Below, piece after piece: positions 6,001-53,832 of a stretch of DNA of 64,000 nt. The position numbers were made by a program, and so were the translations under genes. The DNA lies in the NCBI GenBank assembly GCA_000091205.1, contig AP006484.2. One strand, written 5' to 3'. The notes beneath the pieces were generated by a model, which saw only the letters and a list, made by a program, of their open reading frames with translations, did no database searches and had not been told where the DNA came from. Every line of letters begins with the position of its first letter. Position 1 is the stretch's first letter. Origin of the DNA: Cyanidioschyzon merolae (Eukaryota).

Positions 6001-6443
6001 GAGTCGGCACAAGTCTGGAATGCTGCACGCCGGCAGATGCTCACCGAGCAACTGCTGCGGGTATGGTTGCTACCGCCGCTGCTCGCGGAACTGCTCGAGT
6101 GTCTACGCGAGGAAGCGCGAGGTGCTTGTGCGCTCGCGGCAGTCAGCGCCCTGGAACAGCAACTCGTCATCGGTGGCGCGAGTCCCAGCAGTGCATCGAC
6201 AAACGCACATGAACCTGGTGCGTTCGGTGTCCTCTCTGGTACCGCTGCTGGTGGTGTGCTCGCGTTTGTAGTCTCCGACGAGTCCGAGTACCCGACGACA
6301 CGCTCTCGTTGGATCTTTGGTGTTGCCCTCGATGCCTACGGCCAAGTGCTGGACACGCTGCGTCTGGGTTGCCATGGCTGGCTGCCCGGCGACGAGCGGC
6401 TCTTAGGGCAACTGGTTGCAGCGCAACAGGCAAAAAGTGGTGG

Positions 6444-6477
<34 letters not shown>

Positions 6478-6919
6478 GCGGGCGCTTCAGCGTTGGAGAT
6501 GCCGCCGCAGGTGCGCTCGCGACTGGAACGCTTCCTCCAGCGTCATCCGCACCGGCAATGTGTCGCTATTGGGGTCGCTTCTGGGAGTCCTATTGGCGTG
6601 AATGCGGCAAGTCTCTGGCTCTACGAATGGATACGCGGAATAGAGCAGCGTCTCGGTAGCAGGCGTGAGCAGGCGGTTGGGCGTCAGCCGCATGTGCTGC
6701 GTATCGACGATGATGCTGCTCGCCTGTACGCGAAAACGAAGACTCTGAGCGCTTCACTCGGAGGCATGGTGCCTCCCGAGTGCGACGGTCTGCCCTTGCG
6801 ACGGGCTGTTGGTGTAGCGCGACTCTGTCAGGAACCGCTGGCGGTGTATGCAGCGATTGCAACAGAGGCATCCCTGGGTGCATTGCTGCGCCTCACTGTG
6901 CGCTGTCGTCCGCAACACC

Positions 6920-6953
<34 letters not shown>

Positions 6954-11607: not shown

Positions 11608-13560
11608 TTAGCGATGACTACGCGTACCAAGGCTCATCTTGCCCGCAAAGAGGTGATGCGGTTTGCGCGTACCGATGAAACGATCAGACTCGCCTTGGCG
11701 GTGCTCTCGTCCGCTAAACGCGCGACGCAGCGTCCGCTGAACGAGTTTCTGGGCGTGGCGAGCCTGCACAACATCACGCAGACCAGCAGGAACCAGGGAC
11801 TGATCGCTTACAGCTCGAGTTCGATAGACAACTGGTGCAGAGTGAGCTGCTTTTCTGGTCTGCTGCTTGGTGGTGCTTGGGTCGACAGCGCGCCCCCATG
11901 GTCGCTTTGCAACCGCCTGCGACGTCTTGCGTACCTTGAGAAGCGCTTTGCGCGATAGCTTAGGTCGTTGGGTGCGGTCTCGGGCAGCTTGCTGCTGACG
12001 AAGCCGTCGCTGGTTGCGAGCTTTCTCCCGAATCAGCGCGACATCGGTGTCTGACGGTTGATCAACCGGGACGTCTGCACGCGGCTCGTCACCGACGGCG
12101 TCTGAAAGCATACTCTGACGCATCGTTTCCTCTTGCTCAAGGGCAAGCAGCCTCTGATGAATCTCCGGATCAACATAGTCCGCTATGTTCTTGCCGTCTA
12201 CGATCTCCGGAATGTAGTCATAGCGCCATGCTGGGTCTGTTAGGTCGTAGTGCTTGCGCCAGTCCATGCTGTAGACGCCTGCACCTCCGTGGTCGCGTTC
12301 CAGTTCACGCTCCGTCTTCCGGCCTGCTCGGCTTGTCGACAAGGTGCAGGCCAGTTCAGGTGCGGTGTTTTGGTTAAGTGCATCGTCCGCATCGCGCAGA
12401 GCCTGGCGGCGTTCGAGGACTGAAGCGGGAATCTGCGGTGTGCGAACGAGCTTCGGCTCCGCGACGTGCAGCCGGTTCAGTACAGAGTCCGTTTGTCTGC
12501 CGCTAACTTTGAGAGAGACACGCAGCGCTAAAAGTCGTTCACAAGCGCGATTACGAACCGCGAACACCGATGCATATCCGTCGTCGCCCATCGTGGATGC
12601 CGTCATCAGCTCTGCGCCCACTTGTTCGGCGGTTTCCCGTATCGCCGTCCACGTTGCCGGATCGAGTTGCTGTTCCCAGCCAAGATCCGTCTTATTGCAT
12701 ACCACGAAAAGAGGCTTGTCAGCGAACAGCGGTTGAAGGGAACGAAGCAAGGCCAGTTGCTGGGCTATGGCGTAGCCACAGGTCTCTGACGGGTCCACGA
12801 AGAACAGAATCGCCGCCTGGAGATGTGCCAGCGCTGTAATCGACTGCATCTCGATGGTGTTGCGCTCATCGAGGGCGTGATCCAAAAGACCAGGTGTGTC
12901 GATGACCTGCCAACGCAGGTACTGGTAATCCATATGACCGACAAACAGGGACTTTGTGGTGAACGCATACGGTTGGACGTCGACTTTGGCGTTGGTGACG
13001 CAGTTCAAGAACGATGACTTGCCAACGTTCGGATAGCCCGCAATCAGCAGCGTTCGCGTCATAGGGTCGATACTAGGTAAGCGCGCCATATGTTGGCGCA
13101 CTTGCTCCAGATACGCTAACGCTGGGCGAAGGTGTTTCACCGTTGTGCACATTCGACCCAGAGCGGCTCGTTTGAGGCACTTGGCACGGTAGAGAGAGTC
13201 TGCGTATTTGAGTTGGCGCACGTAGTCGCGTGCAAAGCTGTCCACAAGGCTGCGTATCCGACTTACTTGACCAAGGGCCAGTTTGTAGTGATCTCGGTCA
13301 TACAGCACATTCAAAATATCCGCATAAAAGGGATGTAGTTCCTCTAAAATCGGAAAGTCGCTGAGGATCTTTGTCAGGCGCTCATGAAAACATGACTGAG
13401 CATAGCGCACCTTGCGTATGTAGAACGTCCGAATCCGAGTGATCGCATACCCTGGGTGCACAACGGTGGGGGTTTTGCGCTGTGTCTGAGAGAGTACGAT
13501 ATCGATGAGGTCCAGTGCCTCCGGTACCACCTGGATGTGCTTTAGACCCCCTACAGTCAT
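11608..13560 (-). CDS. NOG1: Nucleolar GTP-binding protein 1 (NOG1)
   Basis: The ORF 11608-13719 contains MTVGGLKHIQVVPEALDLIDIVLSQTQRKTPTVVHPGY...HPFYADILNVLYDRDHYKLALGQV...LIAGYPNVGKSSFLNCVT...FTTKSLFVGHMDYQYLRWQVIDTPGLLD, which is a typical NOG1 N-domain and G-domain. Alignment to NOG1 places the true start at Met54 of the track ORF (ATG at 13560), giving about 650 aa. Confidence 0.9.
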   Translation of the reverse strand: MTVGGLKHIQVVPEALDLIDIVLSQTQRKTPTVVHPGYAITRIRTFYIRKVRYAQSCFHERLTKILSDFPILEELHPFYADILNVLYDRDHYKLALGQVSRIRSLVDSFARDYVRQLKYADSLYRAKCLKRAALGRMCTTVKHLRPALAYLEQVRQHMARLPSIDPMTRTLLIAGYPNVGKSSFLNCVTNAKVDVQPYAFTTKSLFVGHMDYQYLRWQVIDTPGLLDHALDERNTIEMQSITALAHLQAAILFFVDPSETCGYAIAQQLALLRSLQPLFADKPLFVVCNKTDLGWEQQLDPATWTAIRETAEQVGAELMTASTMGDDGYASVFAVRNRACERLLALRVSLKVSGRQTDSVLNRLHVAEPKLVRTPQIPASVLERRQALRDADDALNQNTAPELACTLSTSRAGRKTERELERDHGGAGVYSMDWRKHYDLTDPAWRYDYIPEIVDGKNIADYVDPEIHQRLLALEQEETMRQSMLSDAVGDEPRADVPVDQPSDTDVALIREKARNQRRLRQQQAARDRTQRPKLSRKALLKVRKTSQAVAKRPWGRAVDPSTTKQQTRKAAHSAPVVYRTRAVSDQSLVPAGLRDVVQARHAQKLVQRTLRRAFSGREHRQGESDRFIGTRKPHHLFAGKMSLGTRSHR

Positions 13561-13950
13561 GGTGTCGTCGTAAGCAAATACCAATTGGAAGCGAGCTCTT
13601 CGTGTGAAGTGAGGGCAATGGTACCCAGGGAGTACTGGCTGCTCTCGAACGCCGCGTAGTGTAGGTACGCTGTGAACGGGTACGATAGACGTGTCCCCTG
13701 GAGCCGCCTCGTTGTGCACTCACGAGGAAACAGGTGACCCGATCGCTTCGCTCGATATCGGTATTTGTATGCAGTGGAGGTCCCTTGTTCAAAAAATTCG
13801 ACACCACACCGTCCCTGGTGCACTGCTTTTGTCAGGTACGTTTCCTGAACTCGGCCGGCGACATCGGTATATCCGCAGCCGACGGAGAGTGCGCTGCGGA
13901 CGGCGGCGGCTGCTGCTGCTGCGGGCGGCGCGCCCCAGACGCGAAAGCGG

Positions 13951-15600
13951 GGCAGGTGCCTGGAGGCACTGATCCTCGACACGGGAACTCGAAGCGAAGC
14001 ACGGGGGAACTGTTTTCCGTATTGTGGAAAGATCACCTTGTAGGCAGGTGCCTGGAGGCACTGATCCTCGACACGGGAACTCGAAGCGAAGCACGGGGAA
14101 ACTGTTTTCCGTATTGTGGAAAGATCACCTTATAGGCAGGTGCCTGGAGGCACTGATCCTCGACACGGGAACTCGAAGCGAAGCACGGGGGACCTATTTT
14201 CCGTATTGTGGAAAGATCACCTTGTAGGCAGGTGCCTGGAGGCACTGATCCACTACAGGGGAACTCGAAGCGAAGCACGGGGAAACTGTTTTCCGTATTG
14301 TGGAAAGATCACCTTGTAGGCAGGTGCCTGGAGGCACTGATCCTCGACACGGGAACTCGAAGCGAAGCACGGGGAAACTGTTTTCCGTATTGTGGAAAGA
14401 TCACCTTGTAGGCAGACTGGAGGCAATGATCCTCGACACGGGAACTCGAAGCGAAGCACGGGGAAACTGTTTTCCGTATTGTGGAAAGATCACCTTATAG
14501 GCAGGTGCCTGGAGGCACTGATCCTCGACACGGGAACTCGAAGCGAAGCACGGGGAAACTGTTTTCCGTATTGTGGAAAGATCACCTTGTAGGCAGGTGC
14601 CTGGAGGCACTGATCCTCGACACGGGAACTCGAAGCGAAGCACGGGGGAACTGTTTTCCGTATTGTGGAAAGATCACCTTGTAGGCAGGTGCCTGGAGGC
14701 ACTGATCCTCGACACGGGAACTCGAAGCGAAGCACGGGGAAACTGTTTTCCGTATTGTGGAAAGATCACCTTATAGGCAGGTGCCTGGAGGCACTGATCC
14801 TCGACACGGGAACTCGAAGCGAAGCACGGGGGACCTATTTTCCGTATTGTGGAAAGATCACCTTGTAGGCAGGTGCCTGGAGGCACTGATCCACTACAGG
14901 GGAACTCGAAGCGAAGCACGGGGAAACTGTTTTCCGTATTGTGGAAAGATCACCTTGTAGGCAGGTGCCTGGAGGCACTGATCCTCGACACGGGAACTCG
15001 AAGCGAAGCACGGGGGAACTGTTTTCCGTATTGTGGAAAGATCACCTTGTAGGCAGGTGCCTGGAGGCACTGATCCTCGACACGGGAACTCGAAGCGAAG
15101 CACGGGGAAACTGTTTTCCGTATTGTGGAAAGATCACCTTGTAGGCAGGTGCCTGGAGGCACTGATCCTCGACACGGGAACTCGAAGCGAAGCACGGGGA
15201 AACTGTTTTCCGTATTGTGGAAAGATCACCTTATAGGCAGGTGCCTGGAGGCACTGATCCTCGACAGGGGAACTCGAAGCGAAGCACGGGGGAACTGTTT
15301 TCCGTATTGTGGAAAGATCACCTTATAGGCAGGTGCCTGGAGGCACTGATCCTCGACACGGGAACTCGAAGCGAAGCACGAACGTGCAACAAGGTCGTTC
15401 TATCCTTATGGTAAGCGTTGCACGGGGGAACTGTTTTCCGTATTGTGGAAAGATCACCTTGTAGGCAGACTGGAGGCAATGATCCTCGACACGGGAACTC
15501 GAAGCGAGGCACGAACTTACAACAATTTTGTTTCCATCCTTATGGTAAGCGAAGCACAGGGAACTATTTTCCGTATTGTGGAAAGATCACCTGGTAGGCA
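13951..15600. repeat. Tandem satellite array of about 18 monomers of 92 bp. One 89-bp variant occurs; the distal monomers are irregular and carry about 45-bp insertions.
   Basis: Monomer: ggcaggtgcctggaggcactgatcctcgacacgggaactcgaagcgaagcacggggaaactgttttccgtattgtggaaagatcaccttgta. The phase is visible as the repeated 66-67 aa ORFs in the track at 14024, 14116, ..., 15217 (spacing 92, 92, 92, 92, 89, 92, ...). Monomers at 14024, 14116 and 14208 are identical to those at 14665, 14757 and 14849, which gives a 641-bp higher-order period. The array begins about 390 bp upstream of the NOG1 start codon. Confidence 0.95.
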
Positions 15601-16160
15601 GAAGGTTTCGTGAGCTAGACGAGTCTGCTAGGCTGGTGCTTCACTCTCTAGACAGTGGCAGGTGCTGTGGCGAGCTCTGAGCAGCTCGTCTGCAACGCAA
15701 TTCATTCTGGGACTAGGTGCAGTTAGGCTGAGTCTGGGCTTCGCACTGGTCGTGGTTGACTCCTAGCTTATCGATTCGTGCTGTCGCAGGCAGTCGGTCT
15801 GCCTGTACACTTTACATGCTCCCAGAATAGCTATGTACTCCGACTCCTTGTCGAATGGAGCAGGCATCGAGCCGAAACCCCGCCCCCCCACCAGTGGTGT
15901 GGCAAAGCCGTTCTGGCCCCGTGCTACGTACGCACTACCAGCACAGGCGCTACTGCGGGTGCTCATGGCAAGTACTCGGCGCACGATAGACCGTACGAAA
16001 CAACCAGTATATTCGAGAGGAACTAGGGGTCATGGAACCTGGAGGCCGGATGCTGCATGACGAACTTTTTTTCGAATGCTAATATCCATCCCACAGCCTA
16101 GGAACCATGGCCAATGTAAATGCTTTTTTCAGAGAGAAACACGCGCCCAATGGAGCGATC
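15560..16160. repeat. Dispersed repeat family A, copy 1, about 600 bp, directly following the satellite array
   Basis: Homologous over its whole length to 25801-26410. Examples: cgtctgcaacgcaattcattctgggactagg versus cgtctgcaacccagtttattctgggaatagg; tggcaaagccgttctggccccgtgc versus tagcaaagccgttctgtctccgtgc; aaccagtatattcgagagg versus aaccagtatatccgagcgg; atccatcccacagcctaggaaccatggccaatg versus atccatcccgctacgctggatccatggtccatgg. Confidence 0.85.
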
Positions 16161-18898
16161 ATTACGTTTCAAAATAGAAAACAATTCTTTCATGGGATTC
16201 AACCACGGAGCGCACGGAGGAATAAAAAGCAGCTCTGCCCTTGATAGATTCGGCAAAAGCTCGAACGCGAGTCGAATGGTGAAATACCACGTTGTCCTAT
16301 AGAGGGATGTCGCCAGACGCCAGCGGAAAAGTCTTCAATGATTCGGCAAAGTCGTTGGTGCCATCGTATGAATCCTCTGTACCAGCGAAACCGCGGCCGG
16401 CAAATGAATCCACTACCGCTAGGACAGATGATGTCGTCAGAGTTCTCTTCGAGATCCATCGCGCACACAACGGGCTTCCTGCTCTGCGAGTAGTCACATG
16501 CGCTCCAAAGGTTTCACTTAACGGAGTTCTCATCGACTGAAAAAACCACCCCAAGTCCCAGTGCTTCATACCGATCGCTGAGTTCCAGGAATTCTGTTGT
16601 TGCGATTTCAGTGGAAGATGACTGTGCATAAACTAGGACTTGTTTCTGCGACTTTATGCCAGTGTTTCAGGATCACACGAATAAGACGTTGAGAAGTATA
16701 GACGCACATGACGAATGATATCTTTGCTTTTGCTTTCCGTTAAGTGATCAAAGATTCGCCTTTGACGATGGACCGCAAGCACGCCTTGAGACGATCGGGT
16801 TTTCGCGCGGGGCATATAGTCGTGTTTCTTTCAGGGTTCCGCAGCCATCAGAGTATTGTGTTATGACTGACCTGATTCAGAAATGCAGTCCTTGTTGCGC
16901 TCTTCAGTAAAGCATATATCCTGCAGGCAATTCGACTACGATCTGTCCGGCACGTTGCATCGTGCTTTCGATCAGCTGCTATACCCCGCAGCGGAGGTTG
17001 CACCAACATTGAGTTGAGAGCCCATAAGCGAGCGCTGCGATACCTGGTGATTCATTGATGTGCGTCGGTGTAATTTTTTATCAAAAAGTGTGTGCCATAA
17101 AACCAGGTCATCTATGGGTGTGCGGGCATAGCTTCTGGCCTATCGCAACGCGCCGCTAGTCTTGGTGATGCACTGTTATGTGTTGCGATGTCCTTTCATT
17201 AGTCAGCATGCTTCGTGGAAACCAGGATGGCTGTGAAGAACTTCACCGTGTGCACGCCCTGATGTCTGGTATGTAGTGTAGCGGGTCGTTTGGCGCAGCC
17301 ACGTATGCACACGGAAACATCAGAACGCAGCTCCATACGATTACAGCTCCCGCTTTTTAGAATCAGCGTCGTGTCTGGCGATGCTGCACAGCGCTATGTG
17401 CACAAGGCGGGGCAGTCGCACAGTAACATCGAAAGGTTTGCCTTGTGCCTTGAAGGACTCCGCACGTTGTGTTGCGCTGTTGTAATGCGCGAGACTGGGG
17501 TCCGCGTGCGTCTGTTCTCGACGGATTCAAGGCAGCGCGCAAGCATGAGCGCAAGGCGTCTTCCGCGTCTTCCGCGTGCTTCTGGGAGACTGCGCGCGCT
17601 AGCCTGTTCGTATGGACGAGGCGGATCGTAGACCAAGCCGAACAGCAATGGCAGGTTTTTTCAGAGCTCTCCCGTACTCGGAATCGTGCGCCCTTCGCGT
17701 CTCAGAGGCGTATCTGGTCGATACGCAGCGCCTGCTAAACGGTATAAAACTCGGGTTCGAATCCGTCCATGATTATCGGATGCAGCGCACGCTGCACATC
17801 AGTGGCGTTTCGCGGAGCCCCAGAAGAGCGCCTAGCTGCGTTGCGCCGGGCGAACGATGCTAGATGTTTGCCGCCCAGCGCGTTATTGCCTAATCTGGGC
17901 ATCGTTGACCGCAAAAGGGTCATTCACCGGGGATACTTGCTACCTCGTGATATCTGTGATGACTTTTAGCAGATGCCCAGCGGAGCCAACATCTCGATAT
18001 AGCGATCTGGGCATTACAAATCACAAAAGCCTAAAGTTCGACATGCAGCAGACAACCCCCCGGGTCGATTAAGATAGCGAGCTCTCATACGAACGGGTTG
18101 TACGGCTGGATCAACTCGGGTTTCTCCAGATGAGCAAAACAGACTAGAGCGAAATGGCATGGGATCTGAGAGACATCCACTTGCATTCAAAGAGGGCACT
18201 TGTCTCGCATGATGGGCCGAGCCCTCGAATCATGCTTCCAAACCAAAAACGATATCTACTGAACGGCATCCAAATTTCGCAAGAGAGCTCGTTTCGCTAC
18301 GAAAAGTAGAGCAAAACACCTCTGTGGTCGGTGAAAAACGCCACCAGCTCGATATGGCTGTAAACTGATGCAATCCATGGCCTGCTGGAGAGACACCGCC
18401 CCGCTTCAATTCATCTGCCCGATACTGACTCGGAACGAGTGTTACGGAAGAAAATTCGATTGAGCCGAAGAAGCAACACCTCAAACAATCGCCAAAGAAG
18501 CTCCAGTGCGATCATTGGCGATGGAACAATGAAGATAAGAACATGACTGAGGCTCGCTAGTATCCTGTACCAACTTACACCACTTTTCTGGTGCAAAGAG
18601 ATCGATGCATCATGCTTGAGACGCAGCTACTGCTACCTACCATAGCTGCTGCCGCAGCGAGCACTGCACCCTCTTATGGGACCGCACCTAGTTCGACTCG
18701 AGCGCGATTCACTGAGCTACAGTGCCACTCGCATAGAGTCACCCACAGGTATTATCAAGTCTCTGCGCGTTCCGTTGATTAACTCGAAAACAACGCCACC
18801 TCAGCGGTCCCATTCACCAGGCTCCACTCGCAGCGGTTTATCCGAGTGTCGGCGCCAGCTCGCTGTACGCTGAAAGATCCTCGACGCGCACATACCGC

Positions 18899-19153
18899 CT
18901 ACGACCGTTGCTGTCGCTCTATCATAGCCTTGCTAACAACTCCCATGGACTCAATGTACCTATCGACACACTTGGCTAAACAGGTCTGCTCCCCGGAGGT
19001 CAGCGTAGCGCTTGGTTTGGTCACGCACTTCTCAAAGCACTTTTCCGTCACTCGTTGTACGAGATCCTGAAACGCCTGCCGCAGCATCTCATTTCGAACA
19101 CGATCTTCAAGCTCCGCCCGCTGTGATGGCGTCAGTTGATCTATTTTATCCAT
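18899..19153 (-). CDS. Small Tim protein of the mitochondrial intermembrane space (Tim8/Tim13 family)
   Basis: The 84-aa ORF carries the twin Cx3C motif: ...VTEKCFEKCVTKPSATLTSGEQTCLAKCVDRYIESMG. The segment CFEKC-x15-CLAKC followed by DRY matches the Tim13 signature KCFEKCI-KPG--L---E--C---C-DRY. Confidence 0.7.
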   Translation of the reverse strand: MDKIDQLTPSQRAELEDRVRNEMLRQAFQDLVQRVTEKCFEKCVTKPSATLTSGEQTCLAKCVDRYIESMGVVSKAMIERQQRS

Positions 19154-22100
19154 AGGTAACGGTGGTAAACGTCCAGTGAAGCCGGAATGCGGCGGTTACC
19201 TCGTTGTGTGCAACTGCAGGCACCCAAGGCGACGTAAAGCTATTGAAGTGCATCGGCGGCGCCTGTGGTGCCGGCGCCCGGTGCGACGGCACCATGGATG
19301 CGCTGTCGGAGGTTTGTATGCTCGGGGTCACGGGGGATGCCCTGCTCTTTTCTCCAAAAGTATTGTGGATCGAGTAAAATGCCGGTGACTGGCCCGCAGC
19401 ACGTATGCAGCGCTTATACGGCTGCCAGGATAGAACTGCAACGAGTTCACTGACTCAACGAGGGCGAACACGCGCAAGTTTGCGTTATTTCATATCGTCA
19501 ACTGCACCAGAACTTGGGGGTTGGTTTTTCGGTCTCCTGTGTCGCGTCTCCAACTTTAAATACGCTGGTCTCTCGTTTCGCTCCGATTTCGTGAGCATCA
19601 GTCAGAGGATCGTGATAACAGGGCCAAATTCTCGTTCATAGGATTTCCGGTTGGCATAGACACGTGATAGGCGCAGGCGAAAGTTTCGATCGAATCTTCA
19701 TTGGCCATGCTCACCTATTTGTTTGCGGCATCGGCGTACGCTTTGCAGCGATCACACCCGACTATGGTCAGATGCTGCCTTGTCTCCAGCGTGCTTCCTC
19801 GTACGAGTACTGCCCTCCGGCGCTTGAACTGTTGCTGCATCGCTCTGTACACGCACTAGACGAGTACAGAAGACTCCCCGTCGATGCCCTCGACCGTTTT
19901 CGCGTCTGGTGCCGTACCCGAAGATCACGAGCTTCGTCAGTGGCGATGCCCCCGACGAGTACTCTGTATGCGTCATATGCGAGTGCGCACTGTTCCATGC
20001 CATTGAAGATTTGTGGATTGCGGTGTTCGCCATGGTGGTAGGGATTTGGAAGGAAAATGCAGGTTGGAGAACTTGCCGAGAACTATCGATCCGGTGGCGT
20101 TCTCTTCATGGAAACCTGTGAAGCTTTCCCCATTGGAAGCCGTCTCCGCTATGTGTAGAGTACGAATCCATGAACACTTTTCATGCAAACAGAAGACAGG
20201 GTAGCCTCTCTGGGAGCATATCCCCTGAATTGTATCGTGCTGCGGTTGAATCCGCCGATTCATCGACGGGCACACAGAGAGAAGCACCTGTCTTTCGACC
20301 CGCGTCGAGTATTTGACATGCGCTTGGGAAGAAGTCGTCAAGGAAGGTCGTCGAGATTCTCTCCTCATCGAAGCAGGGACGCGCATAGCTGTGCTCCTCG
20401 GTTACCTTGAAACAGAAAGATCGAGTTCTAGGAAACTGTATGAATTGAGCACGCGATATTTACGGAACGGAGAAGAGTCAAGGCTTGTTGTTCTGCATTG
20501 CGTTAAAATATCGGTTATTATAAGAGCCCTTGTACGAATCTGTCGCATGTCACTGTGATGATGGTGAGGTGACGAATTCTACTGGGACTTTGTCGAAGGG
20601 GCCGTCCCGGAGAAAACAACCGCCGAGAATCGTAAACCAAGGTATGCATCCAAGAACGCCAATTCCCGCACTTCGAAATTAGAGGCGCAATATCAACACA
20701 AGTTCGCAGAGAAAATCGACAGATAGAAACAGAACGAGCAGTTCAGTTCGCGATGGTAGTTCGACACCATTGTGGAGCGCAGCAGCGTATCGCGCTCGTT
20801 CGACTGTACCTGGACGAGTTCGGATAATGTGCAGTCGGGCACACGAACCAGCCCGGGCAGAACTTGGTCCAGGCTCACCTGGGATGCTGGAGTGTCCTGA
20901 GGCGCAACTGGGTATGCCCGTTTGCCGAAACGATTCATTGTCGTTCGTTGGCACTCGTTTAGAGAGACACCCAGCTGCTAGACATGTGTGCACCATGCGT
21001 CCTTGGTGCGTGCGAGCGACGAATATCCCAATGTCGTCGGATCCCGTGGATGACAACCACGCAGCATCGACTCGTTACTCGTTCGACGCACTAGTTGATG
21101 CCGCGGGCGTGCCGCCATCGCGTGCTATAGCGCGTCCTGCGCCAAAGGCGAATACCGCACCACGTGACTTGTCGGTCATGTTCTTTGCCACTTCATTGAT
21201 GAAGCCCGCAAATCTATGCATCTTGCCTCCATGCAACCGATACCGTTGGCGGCCCCAGCGAGGTCTCTCGGAACGCTGTCGAAAATCGTTCGCACGAGCC
21301 ATGTGGACGCTTCTGCTCTGTCCAGTGCTGGGCGCTACGGAATCGATGTTGGCACTGTCACGCCATTTGTTGGTATATACGCTGGCGTCCATAATGCTCG
21401 ACTACCCATAAACGCGAACAATGGAGAAATCAAGCCATATTACATATTCTGTCTGAGCATCAATTACCCTGTCATATGAAGGTTCTATCGAAAATTTCGA
21501 GAGGCATCTGCTCAGCTGGTAGCCCTGCGTCCGGATCGGCTACAGCAAGTCGTTTGACGAGGTGCATCGGGGCGAGAGCGGTGCCTCGCGAGACTTTGTC
21601 GCGTAAGGAGCTATGCGATATCTGTTGGCGTCCTGAATCTATCGATTAGCCGGAGACGAACTTGTTGGCTAGTGATCTATGCGCGTAAAAACCGCGTTTG
21701 CCGATAGTGACAATGCCGTACACTGGATAGAAGCTGGGAGCATGGGCTGGTACGAAGACCAGGTCCAGCCAAATTCCAGCTGTATGCTCCCTGTTTCTTG
21801 TTCAGTCATGGAACGCGACATTGCTAACGAGCAGGACAGACGAATTTGGTAAGGAGGAGCTTGGCAGAGAGACTCGATGAACGACGCGTCGTCGAGCAAT
21901 CCTAACCGTTCGGCGATTTGGGGCCGGCCTCACGCTTGACTCCCCGCTGGGCCTGAAGCCGTTGTCGCACGTGCTTGACTCCTCTTTACGGCCGGAGGTC
22001 TGCCCCTACTTCATCAACGATGCACAGACCTGCCAGTCTTCCCGAATCAAGACTCATCGAATGAGACGAACACCATCCAAACCTGTACTGACAAAAATTC

Positions 22101-22734
22101 GCTTCTCAGTACGAAATCAATCGTGTCTTGTGCAACGCATGGCGCTCTCCCATACAGGCGTGCTTTGCCTCAACGTCCGCCCGTGTCCCTTCGTCACCGT
22201 TCGTATCGAGGGCATAGAGACGTCTCATTCGACGGCATCGTGAACATTGTCTCTTACACATCATATTCAGTAGAATACCTTTCGAAGGAGATCGTCGTCC
22301 ATTTCGTCAGAGTTTGACCGGTTCTCCTCTAGGATGCGTGACGTTCAGAGCCAGCGTCGACGACGAGCAGCGTCATTCGACGTTGCTATGCCCGTTGAAA
22401 TACTGACAAGTAACGCCATTCTATATATGACAGCGATGACACCTTAGAGCCTTTCCAGGACCTCTGTCCAGACATCATCGCCACCACCATCATCAGATAT
22501 TCTATTCATAGAATACCTAGAAGAAAAAAAAACAGCGTGCTCCCGCAGGTATTCCAGCATGGACCGCTCCCGCACTGTAACGGACTCGCGGAGGGCGGCA
22601 GCGCGCGCACTTTGCGCGCCCCCGATGTGCTGTCCGTTTCGCCGCATCCGCCGGTGCCAGGCGCAGAGAAAAACGTTTCGCCTAGCGGAACTCGTACGTA
22701 GAAGCAGCGGAAGCGCGGCCCAGCGGCGAGCGTC

Positions 22735-23469
22735 ATGCTGCATAACGATAATAGTTTCAAGGCGAACAACAACAACAACAACAACAACGAAGCAGGATCG
22801 TCTCGTGGTGGTGTTTACTGGCACGAGGGAAGCGTCTCGCGAGGTGAACGGGCGTCTCTGCTCGGTCAGACAGGCTGCACGGTGTGGCTCAGCGGGCTCT
22901 CCGGGGCGGGCAAGTCGACGATCGCTTGCGCTTTGGAACAAGCGCTTCTGCATCGTGGATACTTCGCCTACCGTCTAGATGGCGACAACGTGCGTCACGG
23001 GCTGAATAAAGATCTCGGTTTTAGTGCCGACGACCGGGCAGAGAACATTCGCCGCACTGGCGAAGTCGCCCGTTTGTTTGCCGACGCGGGCTGTATCTGC
23101 GTTACGGCCTTTATTTCACCGTATGCTGCCGATCGACGTGGCGCTCGAGCGCTGCACGAGGCCAGTAGTCTCCCTTTTGTTGAGGTTTACGTGCGCTGTC
23201 CATTGGCCGTTGCGGAGCAGCGCGACCCAAAGGGTCTCTACAAAAAGGCGCGTGCCGGTCTGATTCACGGGTTCACTGGCATTGACGACCCGTACGAGGA
23301 GCCCGATAGACCAGATGTTATCCTGGATACGGATAAGCTCTCAGTTGGTGAGTGTGTTGAGCGCCTGCTATGCACGCTGCGCGACCTGGGTGTCATCGAG
23401 ACGCCAACGACTCGGGTGTGCGCGACGTGCGTGAATGCGCGCAAAGAGCGTCTCCAGCATATGAACTGA
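22735..23469 (+). CDS. Adenylyl-sulfate (APS) kinase, stand-alone (not fused to ATP sulfurylase), with a poly-N N-terminal tract
   Basis: [23 protein letters not shown]...[52 protein letters not shown]. This contains the P-loop, the DGDN motif and the conserved APS-kinase core. Confidence 0.85.
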
Positions 23470-24984
23470 GCTTCGCATATGGTATATCAGATGGCGGTGA
23501 TGCAGAGGACGCATCGAAATCCTGAATAGATTTCGTTAACGACGGTTGTCTGGGTGCCCTGATTCCGAGGACAAGGCGCTCAAAGGGGATTTTATCGAAG
23601 CATGTTGACACTCTGGAGCCAGTTACGAGAGCCAGCGCACCAGTGACATTCAGAATCGCAGCCTAGTACCTGTTCATGGACGCACAGTGCCGTGCGTCCA
23701 AAAACAAGTGTCACGTGAGCGTCGACATCGATGCCGAAAGCAGACGCTTATCCTTCGAGTCGTTGATGCCCTGTGCCGGCTGCAGCGATCGTCGTAGCGC
23801 TGCGGATGTGTTGCGAGGCGAGCCCAGTACCCTGGTTGCGCATATGCTCCAGTGCATCAGGTATGATGCTGGCAGGCGGTACATGCTCGCTGCAGATACA
23901 CAGGTTGGTGAGTGCGCGACGGACCGACGCTCTGACAATCACTTTCACGTACGTATTGCTTTCGAAGCAGTCCGCTGCGCGACATCGATGGTCCCGGTGT
24001 CGTGGATGCTGATAGCGCCCACTGGGAAGACGCTGCATCTCTCGAACCGCAATGCGCCGAGAGAAAGTTCTTGAAAGCGGAGATACGGGCGCATAAGAGA
24101 CGGCGTGGTCTGCTTGGATAAGCATACATGGATGCTGGCCGGGGTGCCACCTGCTGAACACCAGGATGGTAGAGCTCTTTTCTGACGATGCCTCTGCTGC
24201 TCCTGCTTCTGCTGGAAAAGAGAGCATAGGCCGCCTGTTCGTCTACTGCACGACCTGTTGCATACGTTCGCGATTTGCCTAGCGCCAGCACAGGTCGTGT
24301 AAAGTTCCATAACGGGCGGATAGCCTCCCATTCGGTTGCCGGCCTGTTTGGATGTTATGGATGGCGGCATGCGATCGGCTTGTGGGAGCTCGCAGCACTT
24401 GGCTTTTGGCTCGTCCAACGCAAGGCTCAACATACAATCCACCTAGAGCTCTGGATCGTCCAGAAAAGCTACGAGTCAGGGAGGCGGTGACTTGTCGCCT
24501 ATGTTTGCAGAAGAAGGTCGATCTGCGGTGCGCGTAGCACAGCACTCGATATGAAACTTTGTGCTTTTATCCGTTCCCGCTCCGTTTGGATACGGAGCGC
24601 GCACGACGCAGAGCTCTTTGCGAGCACGCCGAGCCGCCTCATGCGCTCCAAATAGTTTCCACGAAACGGGTCGTTCACACGAGCCGTCTATGACGGCAAA
24701 GAACGCATGTCCACTGCTACTACCTAAGTAAGCATACCTGGTTCTGAAATAATCTCCGTGAAAGCACACGAGAACGTCTTGGTGGTTTTGATACCCGGAA
24801 ATACGTCTCAGCGATCGCCGATGTCCACACAGCATCGGCTGCGTCTCTTCCGGAACGTGCCTGGAGAGTCGGTATGAGCCCAGGAGATGTAGCTTTTGTG
24901 GCGGTGCGGCAACAGAGTACATAAATATACACCCACCCGCAGCAACCTCACAGCATTTTTCGACCCGCAGCCTGTTACTGGTTT

Positions 24985-25700
24985 CAGCCTGTCCGAGTAC
25001 ACTTCTAGCCTGAGAGAGGCTGCGTTACAAAGATAGATTGCCTCGGCTCCTCGGGTCTTGTTTCAGCACCGCTCATCTTCTGATATTCATGGCGGCGTTG
25101 AAGTCTCAGTTCACAAACTCGATGCGTTTCTTACCTCTGGTTGAACTCACCAATGCAAGGAGTCCTATAGCTCGTGCCATGTGTGCCCCTACAGCCTCGT
25201 CAGCGCCTCGCCGCGTAAACCCATTGCTCGCTTATCTCCTGTCTTGTTCTTCTTCTTCTTCTTCGTCGCTTGCGCTTCATCGCGTGACAGTCAGAGAGAA
25301 GGGGATTTTGTTCGTTCCTCCCGGGCAGCCGGCGATGGCGGCCCTCGAGGCTCCTCGGCTTCCTTGTCCACCAGTTTCGTTTTTAGTTTTGAAAACGAAC
25401 GCATTTTAAACGCATCTGCTATAAACCGCGAAGGAGTACTTGAATACACGAATCTGAAGGCCGGAACGCATTTGGGATCAAACATCATATTTTGCTCCGG
25501 CTTCAACGCAAATACAACTTGCACGGTAGAGCAGCGGGCTTGATGACGCCATGCTTTGCGCTTGTCGTGCATTGAGCACGTCACCGGCAACAGTGCACAT
25601 TCCGAATGCAACATCGCTAGTTTTCTGGCAAGTCAACGAGTAATCAGGATCGCGTTTCCCTTCAACAGCAACATGCGCGTCGTGTCTCATGCCCGACAGC
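24985..25700 (-). pseudogene. Deleted, degenerate second copy of the Fanzor/TnpB-like element. It keeps a C-terminal RuvC-III fragment with in-frame stops and an upstream leader homologue.
   Basis: Minus-strand translation of about 25060-25170 gives LALVSSTRGKKRIEFVN*DFNAAMNIRR*AVL. The intact copy reads LALVSTTNDGKKRMEFVNRDFNAAINIRRCAVL. The 3' flank at 24985-25040 matches 49830-49860 (tttttcgacccgcagcctgttactggtttc versus tttttcgaccggccacgcactactggttcc). The segment 25640-25700 matches 52540-52600 (cgtttcccttcaacagcaacatgcgcgtcgtgtctcat versus cgtttcccttcaacggcggcgcgcgcgtcgtgtctcat). Confidence 0.6.
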
Positions 25701-25800
25701 TATGGAGGTACGGATCTCGGCTGCGCTATAGAAAAAAGAACAGAAACGATCCACTCCGTGGCAACTAGATCAAAAGTTCTTTCGCCTCTACTATAAGCGT

Positions 25801-26410
25801 TGAAACGGGAACAGCTTTCCGTATTTTGCAAAGTTCACCTTCTCGGCGGAAAGTCCTGCAGGTCGGACAAGACTACTAGGCTAATACGCTGCACTCTACG
25901 GAGCGAAGGGTACTGTAGTGAGATCTGGGCAGCCCGTCTGCAACCCAGTTTATTCTGGGAATAGGGTCTGGTATGCTTCGTCTGGGCATCGTTTTGGTCG
26001 TAGTGCTCTTCTTGCATATCGCTTCGCGTTGTCGCGGGCAGCAAGTCTGTCTGCACAGCTTGCAAGCTCCCGGAATTACACTGAATCCCGATTCTGTGAC
26101 TAGTGCACCACACCTCGCGCAGACGCCATCAGTGGTATAGCAAAGCCGTTCTGTCTCCGTGCAGCATCCGCACAGGCGGTATAAGCGCTATTGTGAGTGC
26201 TCAGATCACGTTAGGTGCACAGTGGAACGTGCAAAATAACCAGTATATCCGAGCGGAAGTACGAATAATGGAACTTGGACTTGTTGGGCAGCCTGCTTGA
26301 CACTTTTTCGAACGCCAGCATCCATCCCGCTACGCTGGATCCATGGTCCATGGAAACGTTTTGGCAAAGAAAGAAATTCGCCCACCGGCGGCATTTGCCG
26401 TAGCTGGAGC
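25801..26410. repeat. Dispersed repeat family A, copy 2. Its first about 60 bp are one diverged monomer of the 92-bp satellite.
   Basis: Copy 2 reads acgggaacagctttccgtattttgcaaagttcacctt; the satellite monomer reads acgggggaactgttttccgtattgtggaaagatcacctt. The rest aligns to 15620-16160 as described for copy 1. Confidence 0.85.
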
Positions 26411-26594
26411 AGTGCTGGAGCGCTGGGTCGGTGACCACTGCTTGACAAAGTGTCAACGTGCTTCCTTGTTATCTTTATTACTCGCCTGAAATCCAAAGTG
26501 TCTACGTGCGTACGTGCTAGCTGGTTGCGCGGTCGCTAGTTTCATGCTGCGCTTGGACAGAGGCTCAGGATAAATAATCGAGGCGTTCATAGAA

Positions 26595-27692
26595 ATGTTC
26601 CAGGGCCACTTGAGAGCCTTGTTGCGATCAGTAGCGAAACCCAGATTGCTTGGAGAACTTGCGTCGAAATCAACTGCATCACGAGCACTTGGTCGACAGA
26701 GCACGTTTCGGAGTGCGTTCGGTTGCGTCGGCGCAAGCACCTGGCAGCGCGCAGCTCCTGCCTCCACAACAGCAGCGGCGTCGGCTTCGGCTGATGGCAC
26801 CGGCGGTGACCGAGAAGCTCGTGCCTGGGACTGGAAACCGAAGGCAGTACCACCAGCGATCGGGGAGGAGATGGTCAAGTTGCACCGACAAGCCCCGGAT
26901 AAGTGGAGTGCGGTGGCGCTCGCGAAGAAGTACGGATATGATGAGCAGTTTGTGCAGGCCACTTTAGAGTTGGCCGAACTGGAAGCAAGCGTTCGGGCGC
27001 AAGTCAGTGAAAAGGAATGGAACGACGTCTTTGAGCCATTAGCTCGCGTTGCGCAGGAGTTCGAGGCCGCTGCAGCCGAACGTGCTGGACCAGACTGCCT
27101 CGTGCTCGGCATACCAGCACCATGGGAAGTCTTTCCGAAAAAGGCTGTGCGAAGTCGGGCATCGCGTATGATCTTCTACCGCGTTCGACGCGACGAAAAC
27201 GTTGAGACGGCACAAGCTCGTGCCGTTCGAGCCCATCTTGGTGCACCGGACGAAAGCGGCATCGCTGATAAGGCGCTGCCCGCTCCACACGCGAAGGATG
27301 CCGTCGCTGCCTCTGAGGCCTCGGACGCCGGTGGCCGCAGCACGTCATGGCCATCGCAGCCGTCAGTGCGATACGAAGCGAGCGCTGGGGCAGCGACTGT
27401 CCCGAAACCGCGGGTTCCTTTCATTTTCGTGGAGCGCGCGACAAGTCCTGTGTCTGCCAAGACCGGAAAGTTGCAATCCCAGTTGCGTGTCGTGGTGCGT
27501 GATACCGATGGTACCGTGCGCGAACCTCGTCCCGAAGAGAGAAACTTTGCGTTAGCGGCGTTCGGGTATGGAGCATCGGCGGATGACGATCCTCGGACGC
27601 CGTTGCACCCACGGCATCCTGGTGCGCCGAAGACGCCGCCTCCGCCTCCGCCTCCGCAGTCAACTGTAAGCCAGGAGTCGAATGCCGCATGA
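26595..27692 (+). CDS. Hypothetical protein (365 aa). The N-terminus is basic and hydroxylated, like an organellar presequence; the C-terminus is Pro-rich.
   Basis: It is the longest ORF in an otherwise unannotated interval, with no recognisable domain. A 219-aa ORF overlaps it on the minus strand, so the coding strand is not certain. Confidence 0.3.
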   Translation: MFQGHLRALLRSVAKPRLLGELASKSTASRALGRQSTFRSAFGCVGASTWQRAAPASTTAAASASADGTGGDREARAWDWKPKAVPPAIGEEMVKLHRQAPDKWSAVALAKKYGYDEQFVQATLELAELEASVRAQVSEKEWNDVFEPLARVAQEFEAAAAERAGPDCLVLGIPAPWEVFPKKAVRSRASRMIFYRVRRDENVETAQARAVRAHLGAPDESGIADKALPAPHAKDAVAASEASDAGGRSTSWPSQPSVRYEASAGAATVPKPRVPFIFVERATSPVSAKTGKLQSQLRVVVRDTDGTVREPRPEERNFALAAFGYGASADDDPRTPLHPRHPGAPKTPPPPPPPQSTVSQESNAA

Positions 27693-37209: not shown

Positions 37210-37685
37210 TCCGTACGCCCATATCATTGTACTTGGCCTATAGAAACTATGCATCTCCATAAAAGTCTGCATCCCAATCGCGAGACAGGAGCAGAGCATG
37301 CGCTTTGTACGCCCGTATCATTGTACTTGGCCTATAGAAACTATGCATCTCGATAAAAGTCTGCATCCCAATCGCGAGACAGGAGCAGAGCATGCGCTTT
37401 GTACGCCCGTATCATTGTACTTGGCCTATAGAAACTATGCATCTCGATAAAAGTCTGCATCCCAATCGCGAGACAGGAGCAGAGCATGCGCTTTGTACGC
37501 CCGTATCATTGTACTTGGCCTATAGAAACTATGCATCTCGATAAAAGTCTGCATCCCAATCGCGAGACAGGAGCAGAGCATGCGCTTTGTACGCCCGTAT
37601 CATTGTACTTGGCCTATAGAAACTATGCATCTCCATAAAAGTCTGCATCACAATCGCGAGACAGGAGCAGAGCAAACACTTCTGT
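37210..37685. repeat. Tandem array of 5 units of 94 bp
   Basis: Unit: gtacgcccgtatcattgtacttggcctatagaaactatgcatctcgataaaagtctgcatcccaatcgcgagacaggagcagagcatgcgcttt. Unit starts are at 37213, 37307, 37401, 37495 and 37589. There is no sequence similarity to the 92-bp satellite. The array lies about 330 bp upstream of the SAHH start codon. Confidence 0.95.
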
Positions 37686-49724: not shown

Positions 49725-49918
49725 CACCACCGCCTTTCGAAAGTCGAACGACGTCGCCGACGGTATAGCGTAGTGGCGGCAAACGGGCCTTAGACAAATC
49801 GTCTCCAACTGATGTGCAGACGCCTCCCCGTCTTTTTCGACCGGCCACGCACTACTGGTTCCCACTTTTTCTCATATAGTTCGATTTTGAGGGGTTGTCC
49901 TACAAAGGACCTTGTTGT

Positions 49919-50791
49919 CTACTCTGGAGGTCTTTTCTCCAGCACCGCACATCTCCTTATATTGATAGCGGCGTTAAAGTCTCTGTTAACAAATTCCATA
50001 CGTTTCTTGCCATCATTGGTTGTACTTACTAGTGCAAGTAGTCCTCGAACTTTTGCCATCCTTTCCATTTGCTCGTCTGTCAGCGGTCCGTACTTTGCGA
50101 TTTCCTCAGGGCTCCACTGGCACTTTTCCATCTCGACCCTCTGAAGTCTACACCCCAGTTCATGGTGCGTATACGATGTTCGGAACTCATCTACGGATAT
50201 TGTAACGAAACGTCGTGCACACTCTTTGTACACCCTCGTCGTTGGAGAAGACGTATTCTCTTTCTTGGGCGCCCAGCGCCCTGCCCCATACGCTACTACG
50301 AGCCTCTGACTCTCATCCTCCTTCAAGGCGACCAACTGATTGAAAAAGTTGGCAAACGCCCGCTGTTTCCCGCCGTATAGATTCATTCGCAAACGAGCCC
50401 ACCGGGGCTTGGTATCCTCCTCCCACAGCGCATCCCAATGAGCAACACGAATTTCCATGAATTTCCGAAAAGCTTCAAAGTCCGCTCCTCGGCTCGTCAC
50501 CTCGCTCAAAGCTCCCAGGTGATCCTTCATTCCTGAATTCCAAGTCTCGATTTTCTTCCTCGCATTCATCATTCCCAATTCTCGATAGTATCTCGCTCTC
50601 GAGAACCCCAAAAGACGCATGTCTTTCTGACGCAAGTTACCGTCAATGCCATCTTCCGCACGCTTTGGTGCTGCGATGGTTATGATATTCGTGTTCCCAG
50701 GGTCCGCGCCAACGACAAAGTCGTTATCCTGCACTTTCTGTGTCCGAGGGCCCGCCTTCTTGTTTTCTACATGCTTCGCCGCGCCAACCAT
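49919..50791 (-). CDS. RuvC-nuclease segment of a TnpB/Fanzor-like protein (C-terminal 290 aa)
   Basis: RuvC-I: VVGADPGNTNIITIAAP (compare GIDxG). The pre-zinc-finger motif is SVDEFRTSYTHHELGC (compare VDPRYTSQTC in TnpB). RuvC-III: FVNRDFNAAINIRR (compare DxNAAxNI). A CTGGAG-7nt-CTCCAG hairpin at 49924-49942 overlaps the last codons. The stop codon is TAG at 49919-49921. Confidence 0.75.
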   Translation of the reverse strand: MVGAAKHVENKKAGPRTQKVQDNDFVVGADPGNTNIITIAAPKRAEDGIDGNLRQKDMRLLGFSRARYYRELGMMNARKKIETWNSGMKDHLGALSEVTSRGADFEAFRKFMEIRVAHWDALWEEDTKPRWARLRMNLYGGKQRAFANFFNQLVALKEDESQRLVVAYGAGRWAPKKENTSSPTTRVYKECARRFVTISVDEFRTSYTHHELGCRLQRVEMEKCQWSPEEIAKYGPLTDEQMERMAKVRGLLALVSTTNDGKKRMEFVNRDFNAAINIRRCAVLEKRPPE

Positions 50792-51160
50792 AAAGGCGTT
50801 ATCCTACACCTCCTGCATCACAGGATCCGCCTCCTTCTCGTGTTCACCCTTGGTCACGTTAACGACAAAGTCGTTATCTTGCACTATCTGCTTCTCAGAA
50901 CGCGCCTTGTTGTTTTCTTCATGCTCAGACAGGCCAGCGACAAGGTTGTCATCCTCCACCTCCTGCATCGCAGGACCAGCCTCCTCCTTTTCTTCATCCT
51001 TCGTCACGTCAACGACAAGGTCGTTATCCGCACCTCCTGCGTCGCAGGATCCTCCTCTTTGTTTTCTTCATCCTTCGCCACGTCAAGGACGAGGTCATTA
51101 TCCTCCACTTCCTATGTCGCAGGACCAGCCTCCTCCTTTTCTTCATCCTTTGTCACGGGC
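50700..51160 (-). repeat. Internal tandem repeat inside the Fanzor-like gene: about 6 units of 75-78 bp encoding an acidic 25-26 aa module ([25 protein letters not shown]...)
   Basis: Repeats are visible on both strands. The plus-strand ORFs 50646-51248 and 50771-51205 show reiterated DKVVILHLL and TTKSLSCT strings. The minus-strand frames give [13 protein letters not shown](M/T)QEVEDDNLV units. Confidence 0.85.
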
Positions 51161-53832
51161 GCAGCCGAGGGCGCAACTGGCCGATCTCCCTTCAACGGCC
51201 GATAGTGTATACACAAGGCTACTCCATCGGTTTCAATCATCCCGCTGAACAACTTCTGCTTGCTCACTCTCAGAGGTTTGAAATCGAAGATGCTCTTCCT
51301 GTACGTCTCCCGGTTTTTACCAGAGAATTCCTCTGTGCTAACATTGGACTCTGGACTGATCTCCTTCATGATGCCATGAAGGACGCCGGAGTTGATAGTC
51401 ACAAAATGTGACTCGATCTTGCACATTGGAACCACGTTGAAGCGCTTACCCATTAGGACAGACTTCCGTCTCTCCCACTCTTCATTTGTCTCTTCACTCA
51501 GCTTCATCTCCGCTTCGCGTTCGAGTTCACGGTCCAAAAACACAAGATACCGCAGGGAGAGGCGATAGTATTTTTCCTTATCTATTTTCAACTCTGATAC
51601 CTTTTCTGTTGGATTCACCAGCCCCAAGACTGCACGGTGCTCTTGTATAGCCGCACGGGTTACAGAAGCTTCATTCGTGCTCCCTTTTGACGTCTACTTG
51701 TCGACAAATTCGACCTCACCTTGATGCTTGCGATCTCTCGTGATGCCATTGATCATCGCCCATATTCCTTTGCGAGAGATACCTGGGTAGAGTGCAACCG
51801 CGGCGCGTACTATGAAACATTCGAGGATCACTGTCAAATGGTTCTTCAGATTCGTGAGGTACTTCATCGCTCCGTATGTGTAAATACCCTGGCCACCCTT
51901 GTATCGATTACCCTCGAAGCGGAATTCCGCGAAGTTTTCGTGGAGGCCGTCCACTAGCACATTTTCCTTCCGCGCTTCCGCTGTACCAAAGATGAGGTAA
52001 CGAAAAAAGGTCTTTTCGAAAAACTCGTCCGGAATCTCGACCGTTTCCATGTGCGTCACGTCGCGATACATCTCCCTCGCTAAATGCATCAGTCCTGACG
52101 ACGCCTCTATAATACTCTTGGAGTCCGAATCGACACGGTTTCTGATAGCGTCTCGCAAATTTTCTCTGCAGGGATCCTTGACATGTCCAAGAAGAGAGGT
52201 ATTCACAACCATCTCGTTGTACAGTCGTCTTTCTTGCAGCCTTCGACGCAGGACCTTCCCCTTTTGGGTCTTCTTCTCTTCCTTTTCTCCTGGACTCGGC
52301 ACTGTTTTTTGTTTTTTCTGGCAGCCTGCGACCCTGGGCCTCCAGGATCGTCGACTTCCTTTTCATAACTTTTCTTTTCTAGTTTTTTTAAATGAACCCT
52401 CTGTGAACGCTTCTGTTATATACTGCGAAAAATCAATCGAATATTTTCACTTGAGGGTTGAAACACAATCGAACTAAAAACTATACTTGCCTATGAAATT
52501 AACGAAAATACAACTTTTACACGAGAGCTAGACGCTAAAGATCAAGATCACGTTTCCCTTCAACGGCGGCGCGCGCGTCGTGTCTCATATCTGCCCCAAC
52601 TCTCAGGTACGCTCATCGAGCGCGATGCATGCGCTGCGCGAGACGCCTCATCGATCGATGAAGGACACGTGTCCGACACCCCGCCTTGGCATATGCGTGT
52701 TTGTATCGCGCTGCAGCTGAAGTAAAGTATCGTAGATTGGAAACTCACGTAGAGTAATCTCTTGCTATAGGCTCTGTCGCTGGTGCCGAAGCTACTGCCC
52801 ATCGCAGTACCGCCTTGACATACATGGAGATGTAGGGGCCTGGCACGATACCCCTCGACGCTTCTATCAAAAGCGTAGCGTTCTCTGCGGCTTACGCTTG
52901 TCTGGATAAGGTACGCATCACTCTAGCCTTGAAGAGTTTCGTTAGTTTTATTGATCGTAAACAAACAAGGGACGGTAGGATTCCTGAACACGGACATACG
53001 TTTAATTCCTATGCTTGTTATGCATGCCGCACGGACGCTGGAATAAGGACCTGACCTGAATTTTGCTTCTATCCCGCGTCATGGGCTAGAACCGATGATA
53101 GTTCAAGTCATTTCCATGCTATCGTCGTTGTCCAAGTTATGATGCCCGCTACGTCCCCCGGATCCGGTGGTCTCGGCAGAGGCATACCACATATGTGGCG
53201 TCCATATCTGCCACGACGTTTGAGCCTTGCATCTCGCCTGGCACGATCGAGGCATCCGGCAATAGCACATATTGTGTTCTGATCTACTCTATAAGATTGG
53301 TTTCAAGAGCCTAACCCGTACATCGAGCCCGGAAGCGACATAGCCAACAACAAATGCCTTTGAAAAGAAAAACTTTTTCGCCGGCCGTGCAGAGTAGTGG
53401 CGAGTGACCCGCCCCAGACATGACGTGTCCAACTGACGTGCAGACGCTTCCAAAATAACGTAGCGCCGGAGGAAATTCCTTTACACCTCCTCTACGTTAT
53501 TCGTCAGTGAGCTGCTGCGACGTGTCTTCACGATAATTGTGATCTCTGAACTCAGCATCGCGGAGCGCTGACCGACCAGTACTGACGAGATTGTTGCTCG
53601 GAAAACAGCGAGTTTTGCCTAGTTTCTGAGAAATACTTTCAGCGCTTGTGCGGGTTGTGCTCAAAGTTGGACAGTCCAGGGGAGATTGAGGTCGGCATCA
53701 GCACCAATGGACGGGCGATCACACGTGCAGCAACGCAAAAGATGTTTTCGACTGGATATGCACACCTACGCGAAAGACTCTAGCCGGTGACGTGATCGAC
53801 AGCTTTGCACCGGAGAAAATCTAACCGAGAAA

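Follow-up and report, generated by a model that had tools for sequence, protein, structure and literature searches.

The sole Fanzor1 transposon family described for Cyanidioschyzon merolae is CMe-1A, with a consensus of 3169 bp and about 150 copies (Bao & Jurka 2013, Mob DNA 4:12, PMC3627910). Its copies are ~80% identical to the ~3-kb consensus and have no terminal inverted repeats (TIRs), the target site duplications (TSDs) were undetermined, and the class of the family was left unknown in 2013 (PMC3627910). The 5' 635 bp of CMe-1A are the whole of a separate element, TE-N2_CMe (TE-N2), with about 70 copies (PMC3627910). The association between TE-N2 and Fanzor is already in the literature and went unrecognised in the original prediction, which placed a deleted Fanzor remnant next to a 600-bp repeat, "family A," at 24985-26410 of the stretch of DNA analysed here (64,000 nucleotides, the window). 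The window, with about 55% G+C, is eukaryotic DNA with few introns, and its ORF for adenosylhomocysteinase (SAHH) at 38019-39563 is identical to XP_005535237.1 of C. merolae 10D. Judged by sequence comparison, ~24895-26369 on the minus strand is very probably a single dead, internally deleted CMe-1A copy, in which the deletion is ancestral and the deleted form was then copied.

The likeness to CMe-1A comprises the host, which is C. merolae itself or a near-identical relative, an identity of 76-88% with the published consensus, the TE-N2 module at the 5' end, the lack of TIRs, a single-exon Fanzor1 ORF, and copies ~80% identical to the consensus, some of them intact (L021 has a 778-codon open frame). 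The deleted copy departs from the published CMe-1A by the internal loss of ~1.8 kb and by its variant 3' tail. Both features are common to a small subfamily of mini copies, which goes unmentioned in the text of the paper (PMC3627910).

Comparison by blastn with the 3169-bp consensus, taken from Additional file 2 of Bao & Jurka 2013 (PMC3627910), aligned 26366-25643 with consensus positions 4-730 in one unbroken HSP (76.6%, E 1e-155), 25540-25308 with positions 735-969 (E 8e-47), and 25206-24939 with positions 2814-3084 (E 6e-34). Consensus base 1 was projected at window position 26369. The identity of the copy to the consensus was about 76%/68%, and the last 85 nt of the consensus were unmatched, with the variant tail in their place. 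On this alignment the "Fanzor remnant" and the adjoining 600-bp repeat are one element and not two. The reading as a composite non-autonomous element, one of three that had been offered, was correct, as the alignment to one published consensus is continuous; the ~100-bp spacer supposed to separate the two parts does not exist, the homology being unbroken over 25643-26366. The element is also larger than predicted, with its 5' end at 26369 and its 3' end at about 24895 (±20) instead of 24985.

From 5' to 3', the element consists of a TE-N2_CMe module of ~645 bp and, directly after it, the Fanzor leader with about 20-40 codons of the N-terminus, then a short filler, the final ~90 Fanzor codons with RuvC-III, and the variant 3' tail. 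The TE-N2_CMe module (consensus ~1-647, "family A copy 2") occupies 25725..26369 on the minus strand as a contiguous blastn match. Directly 5' of the element on the same strand lies a T-rich flank (26370..26377), reading ...AATTTCTTT before the boundary in element orientation, which reflects a target preference or else is a terminus that has degenerated. The Fanzor 5' leader (consensus ~648-905) and about the first 21 codons lie at 25308..25724 on the minus strand, with a small hairpin at the start (blastn, alignment), and the start codon is gone, the alignment showing ATG changed to GTG (...CTGGTGGACAAGG versus TTATGGAAAAGG in the consensus). The junction or filler with an (AAG)n run, a partly diverged consensus ~970-1034, was delimited to 25207..25307 (minus strand) in a multiple alignment of 9 mini copies. 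It is followed on the minus strand by the Fanzor C-terminal coding remnant (24939..25206, consensus 2814-3084; blastn, tblastn), including RuvC-III with two in-frame stops, and by the alternative 3' tail with a small hairpin (24895..24938), which replaces consensus 3085-3169 (alignment and per-sequence folds of 11 copies; end ±20 nt). The retained 3' part had been taken for a flank but is C-terminal coding sequence, the ORF of intact copies reaching consensus 3107. An inverted-repeat scan of 24840-26400 found no pair joining the two ends, and the copy has none of the TIRs that define a MITE or TIR transposon. An Rfam search of 13000-27000 gave no match.

Within the window, plain blastn detected only 48 bp of similarity between the deleted copy and the long CMe-1A copy at 49731..52624 (minus strand), and sensitive scoring was needed to reveal three collinear blocks (24939-25180 with 49816-50059, 25324-25532 with 52320-52528, and 25643-25690 with 52541-52588). 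This long copy, previously regarded as the full copy, is itself 5'-truncated, without the TE-N2 module (consensus 648-3169), has an ORF broken by two stops and a frameshift, and is not the parent. The coding sequence lost amounts to ~1.8 kb relative to the CMe-1A consensus by nhmmer profile mapping and to ~2.26 kb when measured on the long copy with its extra 75-bp repeats, in agreement with the loss of about 2 kb first proposed. A solo CMe-1A 3' end (consensus 3073-3168) was located at 53451-53356 by blastn against the consensus. The region upstream of the long copy (52626-54600), which includes an SDR/POR-like ORF (53833-54891), recurs in four other contigs at 80-86% identity over at least 2 kb; by this similarity it is a segmental duplication carrying the 5'-truncated CMe-1A, which explains the copies related to the long copy of the window.

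Family A proved to be a genuine repeat and, by alignment, corresponds to TE-N2_CMe, the 5' module of CMe-1A. Both copies in the window, 25740-26369 and 15521-16131, match consensus 4-600/645 at about 76%, and a three-way alignment could be made of the two and a third copy taken from a metagenome contig. The second of them ("family A copy 1," 15521..16131, minus strand) is a solo TE-N2_CMe (consensus 4-600; 76.5%, E 2e-126) of the same family, outside the deleted element.

The adjacency of TE-N2 and Fanzor is not unique to this locus. In metagenome contigs chosen for a Fanzor match (80 loci, a selection on which all copy counts of this analysis are based and not a whole-genome census), TE-N2 lay immediately upstream, co-oriented with Fanzor and joined to it through the same sequence, at 12-13 of 34 non-redundant Fanzor 5' junctions; this is only about 40%, whereas TE-N2 is built into the published CMe-1A consensus. 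Inverted TE-N2 was present at 2/34 junctions and other upstream sequences at the rest. Deletions spanning the TE-N2/Fanzor junction occurred in four more lineages, and L006 shares the junction of the deleted copy over 746 bp. The TE-N2-linked Fanzor modules have their own hairpin variant in common (GCGCGGTCGATACGCGC), which is evidence that the two parts of the composite were copied together. Outside the TE-N2 5' end, each locus has flanks of its own; the composite was thus dispersed as a unit by transposition, and segmental duplication as the spreading route of the TE-N2-linked copies was rejected.

Several features of the joining point were recorded in addition. The Fanzor module starts with a short hairpin at consensus ~648-665 (window 52624-52607 and 25724-25707, and many loci), the arms of which co-vary between subfamilies (GCGCTC/GAGCGC, GCGCG/CGCGC and GTGCG/CGCAC), and alternative upstream modules are joined at this hairpin. 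CMe-1A copies also occur as head-to-head pairs (L006/L007 at 1746-7431, L036, L046, L051, L055, L057, L075 and L077), some around a single TE-N2 and others as fused inverted 3' halves, which gives palindromic rearrangements.

Two independent insertions, with a Fanzor element or remnant placed beside a pre-existing TE-N2 by nesting or via a preferred site, are an improbable source of the structure at 24895-26369. TE-N2 exists alone too, and the proximal boundary of its solitary copies is no different; where TE-N2 is missing, the hairpin that opens the Fanzor module begins precisely at consensus ~648, behind one of at least five other upstream sequences, and the T-rich 3' end of TE-N2 resembles the flank preferred at element 5' ends. 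The composite may have originated by two insertions long ago. Nevertheless, no sign of a separate event was seen at this locus, the junction sequence is conserved between it and at least 12 others and is part of the published consensus, and the hairpin variant common to TE-N2-linked modules points to copying as a unit. Ten orthologous contigs from ten hot-spring metagenomes, located via the neighbouring gene, carry the whole 24600-26700 segment without gaps at 99.1-99.4% identity; all ten have the same structure, none holds one part alone, and none has an empty insertion site. The conserved junction speaks against a nest of old insertions and against a shared preferred insertion region as the cause of the adjacency here, the two readings that had been proposed beside the composite. 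The insertion is old and fixed in the population, and its termini are not exact because the orthologous contigs include no empty site.

The deletion boundaries, the filler and the alternative 3' tail of this single CMe-1A copy recur at at least seven other loci, with junction-spanning matches of 64-69% identity at L017, L027/L034, L038 (two copies), L044/L060, L066, L083 and L023. Six mini loci have a 5' block that stops at consensus 960-969, and the 3' block extends from consensus 2809-2851 to 3083-3088, while a profile of the mini copies maps to consensus 741-1034 for the 5' block and 2840-3088 for the 3' block (nhmmer). The filler with the (AAG)n run was common to the mini copies in the multiple alignment, as was the alternative 3' tail with its own small hairpin, and the long copies L015 and L075 carry the same tail. 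The mini copies are on these grounds an old non-autonomous subfamily, and a single deletion (consensus ~1035-2813) in a variant long ancestor, followed by copying to several places, is the most economical reading. The original prediction of a deletion derivative holds in that the element is internally deleted; the deletion is not local and does not derive from the neighbouring long copy, since the same breakpoints and filler are found at at least seven other loci.

Decay in place, by which a full-length CMe-1A was inserted and lost ~1.8 kb locally while its likeness to the mini copies is a coincidence or the product of a deletion hotspot, is the least probable account: internal deletions are common in CMe-1A (different ones in L025/28/40, L029/30/43, L037/48/72 and L019/20) and slippage could be favoured by the (AAG)n run at the junction, but the block ends coincide at six other loci, a hotspot of recurrent deletion is made less likely by the shared filler, and the shared breakpoints, filler and non-consensus tail together are best explained by common descent.

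The deleted copy retains more 5' sequence, TE-N2 included, than the other mini copies, most of which lack TE-N2 together with ~140 nt from the start of the leader, or have a different 5' module. Four of them carry an unrelated 5' module, which also adjoins TE-N2 copy 1 in the window. Given these differing 5' parts, the structure of the ancestral mini is uncertain. The module, designated "E," is a dispersed repeat at 16144-17035 that is 67-70% identical to L038, L023 and L054, borders TE-N2 copy 1 on its 5' side, and stands in for the normal 5' part of mini-CMe-1A copies at other loci.

Regarding the coding capacity of the deleted copy, the stop-containing RuvC-III fragment of Fanzor announced by the original prediction is present. 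The minus strand at 25052-25177 translates to ARAIGLLALVSSTRGKKRIEFVN*DFNAAMNIRR*AVLKQDP, the RuvC-III string with two stops, and is 70% identical to CMe-1 Fanzor residues 647-689 (tblastn E 3e-10). RuvC-III is the only part of RuvC left in the remnant and is flanked by stops. The other mini copies are non-coding too, and the deleted copy is no longer capable of Fanzor retention or homing functions.

The protein family of the long copies was confirmed as Fanzor1, a TnpB-like RuvC nuclease. A family profile search returned 1307 relatives, many of them 600-740 aa long, and in an alignment of 59 homologues D30 and E202 were invariant and D271 nearly so, within the motifs GxDPG, DEFRT and NRDxNAA. 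A profile of distant homologues matched one sequence in PDB, Guillardia theta Fanzor1 (GtFz, 9cer; E 1.7e-6). The AlphaFold2 model of the 290-aa C-terminal ORF of the window (pLDDT 90.7) had its best Foldseek matches in SpuFz, PpFz and GtFz (E 1e-9 to 2e-6; SpuFz 9cey/8gkh E ~1e-9, TMq 0.6; GtFz 9cer), followed by TnpB (8h1j, E 3e-4) and Cas12. Pfam searches, with sub-threshold matches only, and single-sequence phmmer searches of PDB gave no significant match, so that Fanzor was identified only by the profile of distant homologues and the structure model. The catalytic triad, the PDB profile match and the AlphaFold2/Foldseek result together make the Fanzor assignment sound.

The segment between RuvC-II and RuvC-III in the long copies reads DEFRTSYTHHELGCTLQRVEMEKCQ, with two His, two Cys and zero CxxC pairs, and a C4 zinc finger is not evident in it; the Fanzor motif of Bao & Jurka is a C4 zinc finger between RuvC-II and RuvC-III (PMC3627910). 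A 75-bp tandem repeat in the Fanzor ORF of the long copy (50710-51157) encodes acidic 25-aa repeats between ETDGV and the RuvC-I GADPG; its repeat number varies among CMe-1A copies, with few repeats in the published consensus. On the minus strand at 21078-21437, a stop-riddled Fanzor-like fragment is 32% identical to CMe-1 residues 462-591 (tblastn E 9e-11), which suggests a second, divergent Fanzor lineage; one Fanzor family was listed for C. merolae in the 2013 survey (PMC3627910).

The solo TE-N2 copy is bordered by a satellite with a 92-bp unit (13951..15602; Tandem Repeats Finder, blastn), which extends over 13951-15380 and continues as degenerate units to 15602, merging into TE-N2 copy 1 and abutting it where the Fanzor module would begin. 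A dimer of the satellite matches the CMe-1A consensus at 78% over 58 nt (E 8e-8), the monomer corresponding to consensus ~508-563, within the 3' part of TE-N2. This match indicates that the satellite comes from the 3' part of TE-N2, amplified in tandem. Satellite, TE-N2, module E, old dispersed repeats and the mini element make up a repeat-dense island at 13.9-26.4 kb, in which the very old dispersed repeat or repeats at 19520-20770 and 21430-22470 are 57-61% identical to more than 25 Fanzor-containing metagenome loci. A second satellite with a 94-bp unit (4.9 copies, 98% identical) was found at 37213-37674 by Tandem Repeats Finder.

At the termini of CMe-1A, T occupied positions -7 to -2 in 68-76% of 25 non-redundant 5' flanks, compared to a background of 21%, and this T tract could be part of the element instead of the target. 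The 5' ends are exchangeable or truncated, and the 3' ends are well kept. Per-sequence folds of the 3'-terminal hairpin gave a core stem of 7-9 bp in two variants, CGTTCGA/TCGAACG and ACGTTTTTC/GAAAGGCGT. With G.U pairs the stem often reaches 17-25 bp and, in most copies, appears to run ~9-14 nt beyond the end of the published consensus. Pairing of the flank with its own upstream arm was slightly better than with the arms of other copies when G.U pairs were allowed (7/5000 permutations), the result for this hairpin extension was null with Watson-Crick pairs only, and covariation is not claimed. RNAalifold on the 3' ends of 48 copies gave only 5 pairs, without covariation and without a usable guide-RNA consensus. 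Inspection revealed no asymmetric terminal inverted repeats with complementarity to the 3' region, and the upstream hairpin opens the Fanzor module (consensus ~648) and is not at the 5' terminus of TE-N2. An inverted copy of this hairpin at the outer end of family A was considered and dropped, as 36 ends show unique flanks and share the T-rich tract alone.

The terminal features of CMe-1A resemble, by analogy, those of CRe-1/2/3 of Chlamydomonas reinhardtii, which are Fanzor1-carrying non-autonomous Helitron2 elements (PMC3627910). Both are non-autonomous with Fanzor1 only, show frequent 5' truncation and internal deletion with well kept 3' ends, are inserted downstream of T-rich tetranucleotides, and have a 3'-terminal hairpin and no classical TIRs. 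Unlike CRe-1/2/3, CMe-1A has no established similarity to a verified Helitron end and no recognised asymmetric terminal inverted repeats, and it is not filed as a Helitron because the likeness comes without these defining repeats or an identified RepHel partner. No CMe-1A copy encodes a transposase, which implies mobilisation in trans. The mini copies may have spread by keeping terminal sequences recognised by a putative transposase supplied in trans. In their intact relatives, by analogy with TnpB, the Fanzor nuclease and a putative 3'-encoded guide RNA would favour retention or homing.

The TnpB nuclease with its guide RNA promotes retention or homing of its element, and the guide RNA of TnpB and Fanzor families is encoded in the 3' region of the element. 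Bacterial IS200/IS605 derivatives (PATE/MITE-like) keep LE/RE and the omegaRNA region, with tnpA and tnpB gone. The CMe-1A mini copies are similar to them as internally deleted elements of the TnpB family with terminal regions kept, this 3' region among them, and differ in the eukaryotic host and a different transposase. In the deleted copy, unlike the IS200/IS605 derivatives, other sequence has taken the place of the last 85 nt, the expected position of a guide-adjacent scaffold. A more far-reaching reading is possible but doubtful: the mini copies would be a Fanzor-less satellite family that keeps the TE-N2 end and the conserved 3' ~270 nt of the Fanzor gene as cis mobilisation signals, possibly also as a guide-RNA scaffold used in trans by the Fanzors of intact copies, and CMe-1A/TE-N2 would be rolling-circle (Helitron2-like) elements with 5' ends exchanged by one-ended transposition. 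If true, the rolling-circle part would settle the classification of CMe-1A, open since 2013.

The locus itself is of little import: the copy is fixed and decayed, and its family was both named and tied to the 600-bp repeat in the Fanzor-defining paper. The novelty that remains, the mini subfamily and the details of the termini, is limited. The locus is of use for calibration, as a Fanzor RuvC-III remnant was correctly called from the letters of the DNA. The breakpoints of the mini copies, the T-rich flank, the extended 3' hairpin, the interchangeable 5' modules and the satellite born from TE-N2 could help to classify CMe-1A, and the same features could direct efforts to find the guide RNA that belongs to an algal Fanzor with long-kept intact ORFs.
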